Positions 12,104 to 57,392 of a stretch of DNA of 64,000 bases are shown one piece after another. Position 1 is the first letter of the stretch, and each line of letters starts with the position of its first letter. The stretch lies in IMG/VR virus record IMGVR_UViG_3300035670_000141, positions 11,883 to 75,882 of that record; one strand, given 5' to 3'. This DNA is from a virus. The position numbers and the translations under genes were made by a program. Below the pieces are notes generated by a model. The model searched no databases and had not been told where the DNA came from. It worked only from the letters and a program-made list of their open reading frames with translations.

Positions 12104-12185
12104 GGCTTGATCTTTCAAATTGTTACAACTGTGCTGATTTTATATCATTATGCCCTAAGATGACAAGGCAACTTGCAAATCTTTT

Positions 12186-12383
12186 GTGGAATTGTCATTT
12201 GCTCAACAATTTGAACTTGAACGCCAATTGCGTGCTATTGATGGTGAGTGTGATACCGAAAAACTGCGATCCTTATGCAAAGACCTGATCCGCTCATGGC
12301 ACGCGCAAAGATCTGCTACATTATTCTTTATGAAGCAAACATTGCCACAACGCAATGCACAATCTCATCAGGCTAATTTGTGA
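12186..12383 (+). CDS. nblA: NblA-like phycobilisome degradation peptide
   Basis: 65 aa; ELSFAQQFELERQLR resembles the NblA LS(L/V)EQQF signature, followed by two helices. Confidence 0.5.
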   Translation: MELSFAQQFELERQLRAIDGECDTEKLRSLCKDLIRSWHAQRSATLFFMKQTLPQRNAQSHQANL

Positions 12384-12514
12384 AGAACCTATTGACTCGC
12401 CAAATGATGGTCCGGTAGTCTATGATGTCTTGCAACATGAAGCACAAGCAATGCTAGATTATTTGCATTCTATTGGATGGAAAAAGGTCTCATCCTGGCA
12501 ACTTTGTTATTATC

Positions 12515-13234
12515 ATGACTGAAATGACTTTTCAGCGATTTTTAGATCGCTTCAATGCTTATTCAGGATTACAACATCAAAAAGATGGTGTAAGGCAATT
12601 GTATGACGCCATACAAAAGGGGGCGCCAGAACAGCTCCGTGAGAATGCCCCATGGGCTAAAACATTTTCCCCTGTATCCGTTGCACGCCCGGCGAATCCA
12701 TTGCCTGTAGCCTATTTTGAGCAGGGTGATAACGGCCCTGAAGGGTGGAGGGAATGCCAGCCAACAGCAGTTTCGATGGGCCTTAACCATTTGCGCGTCA
12801 GGGATCCTTTCGGTCCTGGTGTCATTGACGACAACAGTTTTGTTAAGTTGGTTAAGCGTTATGGTGATGTAACAAGTCAATCTGCGGTATCAAAAGCTCT
12901 TGACTTCTTAAAAGTTAAGTATAGATTCACCACGAATTGCACAGTTGAACAGGCCAAGCAAGAAATTGATAATGGAAGGCCATTAGCAGTTGGGATGCTG
13001 CATCGTGGCCCCGTAACCCGCCCAACAGGTGGTGGGCATTATATTACCATCATTGGATACAACGAAAGAGGATGGATTGTGCATGATCCATACGGAGAAC
13101 AGGATCTAGTAAATGGAGGCTTTGTTAAGGTCGGCGGCCTTCATGGTATGCGTCTTCAATATAGCTATAGAAACACTAATCCACGATGGACCGTAGAAGG
13201 TCCAAATAGTGGATGGGCTTGGATTTTTAACTAA
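12515..13234 (+). CDS. C39-like cysteine peptidase, putative endolysin
   Basis: ECQPTAVSM (Cys), GGGHYITIIGY (His), VHDPYG (Asp). Confidence 0.8.
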   Translation: MTEMTFQRFLDRFNAYSGLQHQKDGVRQLYDAIQKGAPEQLRENAPWAKTFSPVSVARPANPLPVAYFEQGDNGPEGWRECQPTAVSMGLNHLRVRDPFGPGVIDDNSFVKLVKRYGDVTSQSAVSKALDFLKVKYRFTTNCTVEQAKQEIDNGRPLAVGMLHRGPVTRPTGGGHYITIIGYNERGWIVHDPYGEQDLVNGGFVKVGGLHGMRLQYSYRNTNPRWTVEGPNSGWAWIFN

Positions 13235-13246
13235 TCAAGGTACAAA

Positions 13247-13930
13247 ATGTCAACAAAGTGGTTAAAATGGTCACCCAAAGAGGTGCAAATTTTGCAGTCG
13301 CTTGCTGGTGAACTTCCAACAAGTCTCATTCAAAAAAGGCTAAGTAAGTATGGCCATGAGCGATCTATTAGAGCTATACAATGCAAGGCGTATGATCTGG
13401 GTCTCAGTCTTGTAGTATCACATTCTTCCTTGTTGCATCTTGTTGATGTAGCAAATTTACTAAAACGCGATCCAAGCGCTATAAGATCACTAGCGAAAAA
13501 TAATCCAAAAGTAGCTAAAATTTTAGCTCTTAGAAAGATTGATCGCAAGATTTTTATAGCTAGAAAAAATCTAGTTAAACTGGCCTATGAAAGACCATCT
13601 TTTTTTGCAGGCGCACCGCAAGAAAACTTGCTATACCTACTAGAAGACCCTGCTTTGGTTGAAACCATTGTAGGTCTATTCCCTTCAAAAGTTATGGATT
13701 TTAGGGTTAGGTCATCTGATGGTGAGATATGGGAAAGTGTAAATCAGATTGGGCGCGTATTTAACGTTCCCGCTGAAAGAATCTTTAGGTCTATCAAGAT
13801 TGGTCATCCTGTTGTCGTTTCAAATGGCTTTAAGAAATGTGCCTTAACATTTGAGCGGATAGGCACACCACGTTCTAAAATAGGAAAGACACTGCAGGAG
13901 CTTCAAGGTGAAAGTTCTGATCACAACTGA
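13247..13930 (+). CDS. Putative HTH DNA-binding protein
   Basis: WSPKEVQIL...RSIRAIQCKAYDLGL Myb/HTH-like N-terminus. Confidence 0.5.
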   Translation: MSTKWLKWSPKEVQILQSLAGELPTSLIQKRLSKYGHERSIRAIQCKAYDLGLSLVVSHSSLLHLVDVANLLKRDPSAIRSLAKNNPKVAKILALRKIDRKIFIARKNLVKLAYERPSFFAGAPQENLLYLLEDPALVETIVGLFPSKVMDFRVRSSDGEIWESVNQIGRVFNVPAERIFRSIKIGHPVVVSNGFKKCALTFERIGTPRSKIGKTLQELQGESSDHN

Positions 13931-14273
13931 AGGTGGTTTTATCGGGCCATTTTGGTGGCGCAATAAATCACCTGTTCTTAATGGTCAACTAGCCAGTGCT
14001 GATGGTGGATGGATTGATCATTATTTTACACTTCATGGCAGTTGGGGGATGAGCAAGAATTTTGTTTCTTGTATTAAGTTACGCGACGTTGAAATTCATC
14101 AAATTAAGGATGGATTAGATGAAATTGCTATATCAGAAATACCAAAGTTTTTTCTTGATTCCATAAAGATCAGCTTAATTCGAGCGCTCATGATCACAAC
14201 ATATAAAATCGCGACCTCTCTTCAAATCAATCACTTAAACAATTGCCTTAATTTAGAATGTCAACCCAAGTAA
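13908..14273 (+). CDS. Hypothetical protein
   Basis: ORF overlapping both neighbours in an operon. Confidence 0.5.
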   Translation: MKVLITTEGGFIGPFWWRNKSPVLNGQLASADGGWIDHYFTLHGSWGMSKNFVSCIKLRDVEIHQIKDGLDEIAISEIPKFFLDSIKISLIRALMITTYKIATSLQINHLNNCLNLECQPK

Positions 14274-14440
14274 CTTCATTACGCAGAAAAAACCTGCGTC
14301 GTCGATCAATGCGATCACAGCCAATGATTCATTGGCAAGTATTATTGGGCTTTATGCTTACATTTTCTCCTTTTGTGGGGTGGGTTTTTTATACTCATCT
14401 TGAGCAAATTACCGCCTTTTTTGATGCTAATCAAACCTAG
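14258..14440 (+). CDS. Small membrane protein
   Basis: Basic N-terminus plus one hydrophobic helix. Confidence 0.45.
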   Translation: MSTQVTSLRRKNLRRRSMRSQPMIHWQVLLGFMLTFSPFVGWVFYTHLEQITAFFDANQT

Positions 14441-14472
14441 CATCAGCCCTTAACGTTTCCCACCTTTTGACA

Positions 14473-55425: not shown

Positions 55426-55441
55426 CAACCCATTCTAAATC

Positions 55442-55654
55442 ATGTCTCAACACGCAACGGCAGAAGACTTCGCAAACTGGACAGAGAAAGCAAAATCTAT
55501 GACAGATTCTGCGTTAATTTATAGTGCTCGCGATGCTTTTCAATGTGCAAAAAATTTTGATAGAATTGATGGTGTTGTTGCTGGTCGCTATGCAGACGAA
55601 GGTCACACCTATTACCAGGAACTAGCCAAGCGGCGTGCGTCACGCCGTGGTTAA
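55442..55654 (+). CDS. Small early hypothetical protein
   Basis: Has its own promoter, 5' hairpin and terminator. Confidence 0.65.
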   Translation: MSQHATAEDFANWTEKAKSMTDSALIYSARDAFQCAKNFDRIDGVVAGRYADEGHTYYQELAKRRASRRG

Positions 55655-55838
55655 CAATCCTCCCCTGGCCTAGCCAGGTTTTTTTTTGCCTTGGTTTAAT
55701 TGTGACAGATTGTTACGGGATCTGCTCGCCGATGATGCCAGGCCCTATGATGAGCACATGAGGCCGCAACGGACGCCTCATCCAGATGAGATCTCGATAC
55801 CATCTCATTCATCCCATCCACCCAACACTTTTCCTTCA

Positions 55839-56240
55839 ATGAAACCATCTGATTTTTCTTCTCAGCAAATCGGCATCAAAATAGAAGCTGCCGCTTATGC
55901 AATTGCCCCATTTGTTGCAGCAATTATTGTTGCAATTCAATTCACCTACGAATCAGGGCGTGGTCTGCGCCGGCTAATTGAGGCCTGGAATGACCAACTC
56001 GCCGCATGGTGGGTTGGTGTTCTAGGAGTCGCCCCTGATACTCCCGCTCCCGCTCCCGCTCCCGCTCCTGCTCCTGCTCCTGCTCCTGCTCCTGCTCCTG
56101 CACCAAAAGCGGCGCGTAAACCACGCGCCAGGAAAGCTGCTGTAGCTGCGCCTCCTGCGCCTCCTGCAGCTCCTGAGCCCAAGCGTCCCCGCCCCACGCG
56201 ACGCGCCAAGAAAGCTCTGGTGGAGGCAGTAGCGGCTTGA
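55839..56240 (+). CDS. Protein with hydrophobic helix, (PA)n linker and basic tail
   Basis: GCTCCY hexamer repeat at about 56040-56103. Confidence 0.6.
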   Translation: MKPSDFSSQQIGIKIEAAAYAIAPFVAAIIVAIQFTYESGRGLRRLIEAWNDQLAAWWVGVLGVAPDTPAPAPAPAPAPAPAPAPAPAPKAARKPRARKAAVAAPPAPPAAPEPKRPRPTRRAKKALVEAVAA

Positions 56241-56301
56241 TACCAAGGGGATCCCATCAACAAGATGGGATCCCTGTATCAAAAACACTGCTGTTTTAGC
56301 C

Positions 56302-56793
56302 ATGGTTAAACCTCAAATCATCGGTACGGTTTCAATAAAAAAAACACCGCTACATGAAACACTATTGCGAAAAGGATCCTTTGAACAAATTTGCGATAAT
56401 GAGCCATGTGATAATGATCCCATCTTTCGCAGTCTTTGTGATTTGTGTATTCAAAAAAAGTTTAAGCCAGTTAGTTCTTCTCGTAGCAACTATGTACCAG
56501 TCAGCTATTCTTATGGGATAGGATCAATTGCTCCTCATTCTGACGATGGAATGGGTTTAACGGCTGGTCTACTTGTTGCAACCGAACCAATTCATGATGA
56601 AAATGGTAAGCATTCCAGTTTTTCCTGTTCGCGCGATTGCTACCTATTCCATGAGCACGCTGAATCATTGATGCTCAAAATTCAAATCGGAGATGTTTTT
56701 ATATTTGACGCAAATTACAATCATGCTTGGATGGCAAATTGCCGATGGCTTTTAGCGCTTCATTCCATCGAATCGCTACAAGAAGATCAATGA
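56302..56793 (+). CDS. 2OG-Fe(II) oxygenase/cupin-like protein
   Basis: PHSDD (HxD)...GDVFIFD...HAWM. Confidence 0.6.
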   Translation: MVKPQIIGTVSIKKTPLHETLLRKGSFEQICDNEPCDNDPIFRSLCDLCIQKKFKPVSSSRSNYVPVSYSYGIGSIAPHSDDGMGLTAGLLVATEPIHDENGKHSSFSCSRDCYLFHEHAESLMLKIQIGDVFIFDANYNHAWMANCRWLLALHSIESLQEDQ

Positions 56794-57296
56794 ACTACAT
56801 CAAAAGAGACAATTCACTTAGAAGTCGTAAAGCAAGAGTTTTAGGTAAACTGGAAATCAGTTTAGATGATGATTTTAATTCTTTTTTGGAAGATTCAACA
56901 AAATACTTTTTAGGGTTTACTTAATTAGTTTACGCATCACAAGATGATGTAGAACTAATCAACCTGCGGCAAATTTGTGATATGCATGGTTTTACGACTA
57001 AAACAAACAAGGGTGAGTTTTTTCATCCTAATGGGTATCTTTATGGCGCGGGGTCCGTCAGTCCCCACATAGACGATACTAATCATGCAACCGTAGCCGT
57101 ACTAGTTGCAACAGAAAATTTAGCGCCTGATCTTGATAGTAACAATAATTACTGCGAACTTGTCACACGTGATCAATGCTTGTCTATTAAAAAAGGAGAT
57201 GTTTTTATATTTGACGGTTCTAAAAAGCACGCTTGGATTGCTAATTGCCGATGGGTGATTGCATTTCAAGATGTAACTATTAAGAAAAATTTTTAA
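56790..57296 (+). pseudogene. Paralog of the above interrupted by an in-frame TAA (56922-56924)
   Basis: Both halves are in one frame and align with 56302..56793. Confidence 0.6.
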
Positions 57297-57392
57297 TTAT
57301 TTCATGGCGCAGTCCGAAGCTAGTTACAAATTGTTAAGAAGCCATCGAATTACTGTTGAAGCGTATTATCATGAATGAGTTAAAAGGATTTC

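Follow-up and report, generated by a model that had tools for sequence, protein, structure and literature searches.

Promoters that combine a good −10 box with the absence of a −35 element, and in which an upstream box serves to recruit RNA polymerase, are known from the MotA-dependent middle promoters of phage T4 and from the CII-dependent promoters pRE, pI and pAQ of phage lambda, with their TTGC-N6-TTGC repeat. We describe here a promoter class of comparable anatomy in a 64,000-nucleotide stretch of DNA (the window) from the virus record IMGVR_UViG_3300035670_000141 of the IMG/VR database. In this class, a 20-bp double box precedes a −10 box at a nearly fixed distance and resembles HLR1, the published binding site of the cyanobacterial response regulator RpaB, which reads KTTACAWW-N2-KTTACAWW (PMC6525291; PMC13421787). 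HLR1 activates when centred at −66 to −45 (with a peak at about −51) and represses when centred at −38 to +23 (PMC6525291; PMC13421787); it functions in either orientation, with validated sites on both strands (PMC6525291). Photosystem I genes form the classical set activated by RpaB and hli genes the classical repressed set (PMC13421787). In cyanophage genomes, the published mentions of HLR1 that are cited in PMC6525291 appear to concern isolated occurrences, and a promoter class such as the present one was not found described within the searchable papers. The dependence of cyanophage infection on light is well documented, and its transcriptional basis is poorly understood.

Positions are given in the window unless marked as genome positions, the window corresponding to bases 11883–75882 of the record, which comprises 75,882 bp and is rated complete. 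The large terminase (TerL) shares 34–35% identity with its counterparts in the cyanosiphoviruses S-CBS2, S-CRES1-3 and P-SS2, and the phage ThyX shares 74–79% identity with the ThyX proteins encoded in freshwater Cyanobium, Synechococcus and Vulcanococcus genomes. These two likenesses point to a siphovirus-like phage of freshwater picocyanobacteria and, judging from the ThyX identity, its likely host is a member of the Cyanobium/Synechococcus group.

The box has the consensus ATTGTwACAraTTGTTACra. In an alignment of 15 sites, the information profile reads A-TT-r-T-w-ACA-r-a-TTGTTAC-r-a from −13 to +6 around an invariant G, and a −10 box of the form TAnnnT begins 33–35 bp, mostly 34, after this G (at +34 to +39, the first T is present in 11 of the 15 sites, the A in 12 and the final T in 13). 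Positions +10 to +16 hold 0.7 bit at most, which agrees with the absence of a conserved −35 box noted in a preliminary description of this DNA; a canonical sigma-70 group 1 promoter, with a TTGACA-like −35 element 16–18 nt before the −10 box, was rejected on the same figure. At a threshold of 14 bits, a matrix derived from the sites matches the 75.9-kb genome 15 times, compared with 0.47 times in dinucleotide shuffles. A second test, which makes no use of that matrix, counted TTGTWA[C/A] cores that have TANNNT at +33 to +35: there are 23, whereas shuffles give 2.7 ± 1.4, and the offsets show a sharp peak at +34 (15 occurrences), with five at +33, three at +35 and a background of about 2. The motif with its TAnnnT box at 33–35 bp, as first claimed, is thus borne out, and the 15 sites originally listed are all present at their coordinates and on their strands. 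To these can be added two sites in the window, both on the minus strand (Table 1), and one outside it, at genome position 2384(+). Three site pairs (50211/51732, 51326/52859 and 55358/55712) are near-duplicate cassettes with similar flanks, so that independent sites number fewer than 15.

The boxes are oriented toward the downstream gene and lie 60–120 nt ahead of the start codons, the approximately 17 predicted promoters of this class serving almost all non-structural genes. Canonical sigma-70 promoters show no clear enrichment in the non-structural half of the genome (56 vs 41 ± 7; 25 vs 30 ± 5), and no box-class site is among the best −35/−10 matches. Because −35 information is lacking and canonical matches are not clearly enriched, an activator appears to be needed, and the box class is the only recognisable entry for unmodified host polymerase. 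Judged from its sequence, this promoter class is real, conserved and, by its anatomy, activator-dependent.

Some particulars of the preliminary description need qualification. The site at 39274 has two candidate −10 boxes, and those at 43817 and 37247 are weak (13–14 bits). Divergent use of quasi-palindromic sites holds for thyX at about 50200, where the bottom strand offers a G at 50205 and TACAAT at +33, and not for the acidic protein at about 55360, where the bottom strand offers only TAGAGT at +24. The open reading frame (ORF) at 12186–12383, previously labelled nblA, is NblA-like by eye and has no Pfam or PHROG match.

The same box, −10 box and spacing are found in three IMG/VR relatives whose TerL is 86% identical, with unrelated spacers. 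In a four-phage alignment of the promoter of the DUF932 gene, which is itself 90% identical, three blocks are conserved: the box, the −10 box with a few preceding bases, and a hairpin in the leader. This pattern bears on the idea that the repeat simply reflects the duplication of a mobile cassette made up of terminator, promoter and leader, with a box devoid of function of its own. The three near-duplicate pairs with their similar flanks, and the position of cassettes ahead of poorly conserved accessory ORFs, would fit such a history; however, among phages with 86% TerL identity the 27-nt spacer between box and −10 is replaced and both elements are kept, and sites that are not duplicates retain the box and the spacing only, which makes this explanation very improbable. 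Many of the genes behind box promoters are not common to the four phages.

Two kinds of hairpin accompany the boxes (Table 1). Leader hairpins with an invariant AGAG/GAGA loop begin 6–11 nt past the −10 box; their stems differ and yet compensate (GGAGGCA/TGCCTCC, GGGCA/TGCCC and CGAGGCA/TGCCTCG), their folding z-scores range from −2.4 to −4.0, and they match no Rfam family. They may be stabilisers of the 5′ end or a protein site. Strong terminator hairpins lie 20–40 nt upstream of box promoters, and the resulting terminator-promoter-leader cassettes surround small ORFs that are not conserved among the relatives. Since several boxes are directly flanked by terminators on the 5′ side and by GAGA-loop hairpins on the 3′ side, with variable genes behind them, terminator, box, −10 and leader appear to form a portable cassette.

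Several features of the box argue for recognition by an OmpR-type regulator of the RpaB kind. When 39 distinct sites from the four phages were pooled, columns ten positions apart correlated at 0.85, and no other shift reached 0.4. The invariant G is present in 38 of these 39 sites and the C at −6 in 37; these invariant positions rule out an AT-rich UP element and favour a specific protein. All 17 window sites differ from the HLR1 consensus by 2–4 mismatches over its 16 specified positions, on one strand or the other, the strongest ones matching best on the bottom strand (GTAACAAT-CT-GTCACAAT, 2 mismatches), and the consensus at up to 2 mismatches is 2–5 times more frequent in the four phages than in shuffles. 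With a predicted transcription start 12 nt after the first −10 base, the box would be centred at −47.5 in the top-strand register or at −50.5 in the bottom-strand register, both inside the activating range of HLR1. A check for RNA sequencing runs containing this phage found none.

A dyad of the NtcA type was weighed against the same data. The box does hold TGTA...TACA, and NtcA-activated promoters likewise combine an upstream dyad with TAN3T and no −35 element. However, the half-sites are 9 nt apart instead of 8 and the dyad centre falls near −49 instead of −41.5. An NtcA-activated promoter (GTA-N8-TAC near −41.5) was rejected on half-site spacing and position, and it is hardly conceivable that NtcA or another CRP-family activator is the binder.

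Likeness to host promoters was sought in five picocyanobacterial genomes reached via ThyX. Searches with the phage box 18-mer (up to 3 mismatches) and with the pattern of core plus −10 box each led to a single place shared by all five, and these places are the psaF and psaA promoters. The psaA promoter reads GGATTGAACCTTTGTAACTC-N28-CTATGCT, directly before the Rfam psaA RNA leader (179.7 bits), and follows the pattern ATTGAACCTTTGTAAC-N29-30-TAT(A/G)CT across hosts, with TTGTAAC inside it; its G-to-−10 offset is 35, compared with 33–35 in the phage. Of the 61 genomes examined in this family, 14 contain the psaA 16-mer with spaced TANNNT, each of them exactly once; the spacers vary freely, and the reversed control gave no occurrence. 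On the bottom strand, this box (GTTACAAA-GG-TTCAATCC) contains one perfect HLR1 unit and one weak unit. The psaF box, CTCGTCACAACTTGTTTCGA, lies about 100 nt before psaF and is identical in all five hosts; its −10 (TACTGT or TAGTGT) is at +45, one helical turn farther than in the phage and so in the same helical phase. In the entire 2.37-Mb genome of Synechococcus WH7803, no other site matches the phage matrix as well as the psaF box (11.8 bits, rank 1 of 2329 upstream regions). A near-identical box, GTTTCAGATTGTTACG, stands beside the start codon of an hli (high-light-inducible-type) gene of a freshwater strain. As sequence resemblances, the coincidences at psaA, psaF and hli are the main support for RpaB. 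Two other places in WH7803 were noted: at 1533807–1533859 (+), an AT-rich island without a clear gene contains one perfect proximal unit, GATTGTTACGA, with TAAAGT at +34, and at 371464–371530 (+), 61 nt ahead of a PsbO-like gene, there is a weak box whose −10 is at +44.

We consider host RpaB to be the best single candidate for the protein that binds the box, with a probability of roughly one half. According to this proposal, the promoters would be used by host RNA polymerase in an activator-dependent manner, and a protein on the 20-bp double box, centred about 48–50 bp upstream of the predicted start, would supply the polymerase contact that the missing −35 element does not provide. This protein would be the OmpR-family response regulator RpaB, whose phosphorylated form (RpaB~P) activates photosystem I promoters from HLR1 at the same position. 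Nearly all non-structural units (nucleotide metabolism, replication, recombination and accessory cassettes) would then depend on RpaB~P, and the unit containing terL and the gene of a phage sigma-like protein probably would as well. Phage transcription would track the redox state of host photosynthetic electron transport: it would be favoured when RpaB is phosphorylated and bound, in low or moderate light, and weakened upon a shift to high light.

A number of results weigh against RpaB as the binder. The box is nearly as good a palindrome as a tandem repeat, with a reverse-complement correlation of 0.80 about position −3 and below 0.2 elsewhere; read in this way, as TTGTAACAA-n-TTGTTACAA, it would suit a dimeric helix-turn-helix (HTH) protein. 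Since the 10-nt unit ATTGTwACAr is nearly self-complementary, symmetry cannot separate a head-to-tail pair of winged helices from a head-to-head HTH dimer. In the five host genomes, neither the 18-mer nor the pattern of core plus −10 box is more frequent than in the reversed control, and a genome-wide scan of WH7803 with the phage matrix gives fewer matches than column-permuted matrices do. The best host match, at 11.8 bits, compares with 20–27 bits for phage sites. Scored with the full matrix, the psaA box reaches about −10 bits, psaL gives nothing and psaD is only in the top 2–4%; the likeness of psaA therefore rests on the heptamer and the spacing, and the psaD and psaL promoters of the hosts show no convincing phage-type box. 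The phage sites are either idealised ones or resemble the host boxes only in part. The RpaB/HLR1 interpretation offered in the preliminary description thus finds partial support: it has the period-10 repeat, the few mismatches to HLR1, the predicted centre in the activating range and the resemblance to host photosystem I promoters on its side, with an equally good palindrome and no enrichment in host genomes on the other.

The hosts also encode 9–10 OmpR-family regulators, so that RpaB is not the sole binder of tandem repeats available to the phage. The box could accordingly be read by a different OmpR-family response regulator, for example RpaA, whose targets overlap with those of RpaB at promoters (PMC13421787), or by a dimeric factor that also acts at psaF, the psaF box being more palindromic than tandem. 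A GTTACA-type site of period 10 with an activating position at −66 to −45 has, however, been described for RpaB only, and we regard another host regulator as improbable.

The distribution of the motif raises a more serious rival, a site-specific activator encoded by the phage itself, which would make these promoters middle-type ones, like those served by MotA in T4 or by CII in lambda. The box with its spaced −10 was not found in six cultured Synechococcus cyanophages (S-CBS2, S-CRES1, S-H1, ACG-2014f, S-RIM8 and Syn9). Sharing of the box by unrelated phages of the same hosts would strongly favour a host factor, and no such sharing appeared in these six. Among the matches listed in a pattern scan of IMG/VR, several copies occur only in relatives of this phage (L341 and L376), the others being mostly single chance matches; two of the matched records, L307 (Methylophilales/pelagiphage-like) and L302 (T5-like), are not cyanophages. 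As far as tested, the motif is thus confined to one lineage, and a lineage-specific phage factor also fits. The palindromic character of the motif (r = 0.80), the far better matrix scores of phage sites than of any host-genome site, and the resemblance of TTGT-N6-TTGT to the TTGC-N6-TTGC repeats of CII point in the same direction. The T5-like record deserves mention on its own account: L302 (IMGVR_UViG_3300021440_000157) has, at 486–3714, promoters without a −35 element in which 2–4 tandem TGTAAAGA units of period 10 lie about 25 nt before TATAAT, and also two GTTACAGGTTGTTACAA boxes, an arrangement that looks, from its sequence, like a different activator-box system in a non-cyanophage.

Candidates for a phage activator would be a cyAbrB-like regulator (PF14250, E = 4e-23) or conserved small proteins without a known fold, possibly delivered with the DNA or made soon after; the likeness to HLR1 would then be partial and coincidental, or would reflect competition with RpaB. 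The recognisable DNA-binding proteins of the phage are the sigma-like protein, assigned to a late motif (see below), an O-like initiator, a ParB-like protein that two of the box-bearing relatives lack, and the cyAbrB-like protein, whose gene is also found in all three relatives (55–61% identity) and is thus conserved in the four phages. No OmpR-type, CII, Cro, MotA, AsiA or HTH family was detected in about 60 phage proteins scanned, among which are many small proteins without an assigned fold. However, the cyAbrB-like gene is itself located behind a box promoter (57333), and no strong box-free promoter was found from which such a factor could be made first. Strict 20-bp sites are not a known property of AbrB-type proteins. 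A phage activator would moreover leave unexplained that psaF is the best host match and that psaA has the core at the same spacing, and the box lies 12–17 nt upstream of the position bound by MotA or CII. Altogether, we take a phage-encoded activator seriously and consider it rather unlikely.

Returning to RpaB, the consequences for the remainder of the phage programme depend on a second promoter-like class, CGGGAAAA(C/A)T, of which ten sites were found, each co-oriented just upstream of a structural gene (Table 1). A gene for a sigma-70 region 2 protein adjoins terL, as in S-CBS2 and S-CRES1, and this sigma-like protein probably reads the CGGGAAAA(C/A)T class. Since the interval from the sigma-like gene to the boxes at 27143 and 29278 is free of the late motif, that gene is probably transcribed from a box promoter. 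The late class would then depend on RpaB indirectly and, because the sigma-like gene sits in a box-driven unit, the whole lytic programme, from predicted early transcription through phage sigma to late transcription, would be redox-gated. It is possible, with the odds somewhat against it, that this lineage gave up −35 recognition at essentially all of its host-polymerase promoters and relies on RpaB~P, via idealised photosystem I boxes, for its entire lytic cycle. If this were true, phage gene expression would read photosynthetic electron flow through NblS-RpaB, the virus sensing light via the master regulator of its own host, which would offer a direct mechanism for the light dependence of infection. 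On the same view, the approximately 17 presumed high-affinity sites in each genome copy might also titrate RpaB away from host promoters.

The packaging and structural genes are chiefly on the minus strand, up to about 25 kb, and the rest of the genome is devoted to nucleotide metabolism (a B12-type ribonucleotide reductase, thymidylate kinase, a dCTP deaminase-like protein and ThyX), replication and recombination (the O-like initiator, RusA, a PDDEXK nuclease and the ParB-like protein), regulators and many small ORFs. Other genes encode a DUF4942 methyltransferase-like protein, two FGE-sulfatase paralogues, a J-domain protein, a DUF932 protein, a DUF1874/STIV-B116-like protein and the cyAbrB-like regulator. 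The two genes for FGE-sulfatase-domain proteins are located where G+C is raised (about 51%), and they have one box promoter each. The STIV B116-like protein (E = 3e-20) belongs to a family of anti-CRISPR ring nucleases. Three tRNA genes lie inside box-driven units of the minus strand, and an Rfam search of the window returned these three tRNAs and nothing else.

Table 1. Predicted box promoters and other features of the phage genome (window positions unless marked genome; G, invariant G; offsets of the −10 box are counted from G)
Feature	Span (strand)	G	−10 box and offset	Bits	Remarks
Box	12109–12161 (+)	12122	TAAGAT +34	20.4	GATCTTTCAAATTGTTACAA; precedes NblA-like ORF and plus-strand cassette
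Box, weak	27106–27156 (−)	27143	TATGAT +32	13.7	added here; candidate promoter of the unit reaching terL and the sigma-like gene
Box	29239–29291 (−)	29278	TAGGAT +34	27.4	ATTGTTTCAAATTGTTACGA; then GAGA-loop leader hairpin 29211–29228 (−)
Box	32195–32247 (−)	32234	TATGGT +34	26.4	then GAGA-loop leader hairpin 32163–32187 (−)
Box, weak	37209–37260 (−)	37247	TAAGAT +33	13.1	before small ORF and ribonucleotide reductase gene 34553–36865
Box	39235–39287 (−)	39274	TAAGAT +28 or TAAGCT +34	23.6	−10 ambiguous; thymidylate kinase in operon
Box	39579–39631 (−)	39618	TAAAGT +34	17.9	added here
Box	41117–41169 (−)	41156	TATGAT +34		quasi-palindrome
Plus-strand reading of 41156	(+)	41162	none at class spacing	14.6	toward O-like replication initiator gene 41272–42483
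Box, weak	43804–43855 (+)	43817	TAGATT +33	14.0	before ParB-like DUF6551 gene
Box	50198–50249 (+)	50211	TATGCT +33	20.6	before FGE-sulfatase paralogue 1
Box	51313–51365 (+)	51326	TAGAGT +34	27.5	ATTACAACAGATTGTTACGA; then GAGA-loop leader hairpin 51375–51392 (+)
Box	51719–51771 (+)	51732	TATGAT +34	24.9	terminator 51681–51702 (+) just upstream; before FGE-sulfatase paralogue 2
Box	52846–52898 (+)	52859	TAAGGT +34	27.5	then leader hairpin 52908–52925 (+); before J-domain protein gene
Box	53485–53538 (+)	53498	TATAGT +35	22.0	terminator 53448–53468 (+) just upstream; before DUF932 gene
Box	55345–55397 (+)	55358	TAAGAT +34	26.8	ATTGTGACAGATTGTTACGG; then leader hairpin 55407–55424 (+)
Box	55699–55751 (+)	55712	TATGAT +34	26.8	terminator 55664–55678 (+) just upstream
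Box	57320–57372 (+)	57333	TATCAT +34	22.7	CTAGTTACAAATTGTTAAGA; 2 mismatches to HLR1, top strand; operon of DUF4942 methyltransferase-like and cyAbrB-like genes
Terminator hairpin	59714–59734 (+)
Late motif	744, 11669, 16587, 20928, 22524 (−)				CGGGAAAA(C/A)T
Late motif	63749 (+)				CGGGAAAA(C/A)T
Late motif	genome 839 (+)				CGGGAAAA(C/A)T
Late motif	genome 6050, 9773, 11737 (−)				CGGGAAAA(C/A)T
Sigma-70 region 2 protein gene	22532–23425 (−)
STIV B116-like/DUF1874 gene	31235–31630 (−)
FGE-sulfatase paralogue 1	50209–51300 (+)
FGE-sulfatase paralogue 2	51616–52833 (+)
cyAbrB-like gene	59147–59680 (+)
tRNA-Thr (TGT)	29329–29400 (−)
tRNA-Leu (TAA)	34246–34330 (−)
tRNA-Met (CAT)	40449–40521 (−)

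The class can be compared with several described systems. Like NtcA class II promoters (GTA-N8-TAC at −41.5 with TAN3T), it has an upstream dyad, a TAN3T box and no −35 element; unlike them, it has half-sites spaced by N9 and a centre about 7–8 nt farther upstream. With MotA- and CII-dependent promoters it shares a −10 box without −35 and an upstream box, the CII repeat also having a period of 10, whereas in those promoters phage proteins bind boxes at about −30 to −35, and the present boxes lie at about −48 to −50, with no such phage protein found in the roughly 60 scanned. The box promoters are compact and modular, being composed of box, −10 and leader hairpin. Together with their terminators they recall the promoter-stem-loop (PeSL) cassettes that Arbiol et al. 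reportedly described in 2010 for T4-type phages, which likewise combine a terminator hairpin, a promoter and a leader into a portable unit beside small early ORFs of poor conservation. In PeSL cassettes the promoter is an early one of the ordinary sigma-70 kind, whereas the present cassettes have a box of activator type upstream and a leader hairpin with a GAGA loop.

A close likeness is to the activating class of HLR1 in the NblS/Hik33-RpaB regulon, as present in the photosystem I promoters of Synechocystis 6803 and S. elongatus (PMC6525291, PMC13421787), with the same two GTTACA-based units of 8–10 nt and the same period of 10. The common features extend to a centre about 50 nt before the start (here a predicted one), function in either orientation, pairing with a −10 box, and a core also found at psaA and psaF of the likely hosts. 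Differences are that the phage boxes lie on a virus and would serve nearly all of its non-structural units instead of photosynthesis genes, and that their 20-bp consensus is far tighter, with conserved linker and flanks (ATTG...TTG), and quasi-palindromic. Finally, the Pho boxes on cyanophage genes that act via the host PhoBR system, as cited in PMC5931967 (its reference 16), offer a parallel in which an OmpR-family response regulator of the host reads a phage promoter; in the cases cited there this concerns a few auxiliary metabolic genes, whereas here it would concern the main non-structural promoter class. If RpaB is indeed the binder, the use of host two-component regulators by cyanophages would extend from a few auxiliary genes, as with PhoB, to the core programme of the virus.

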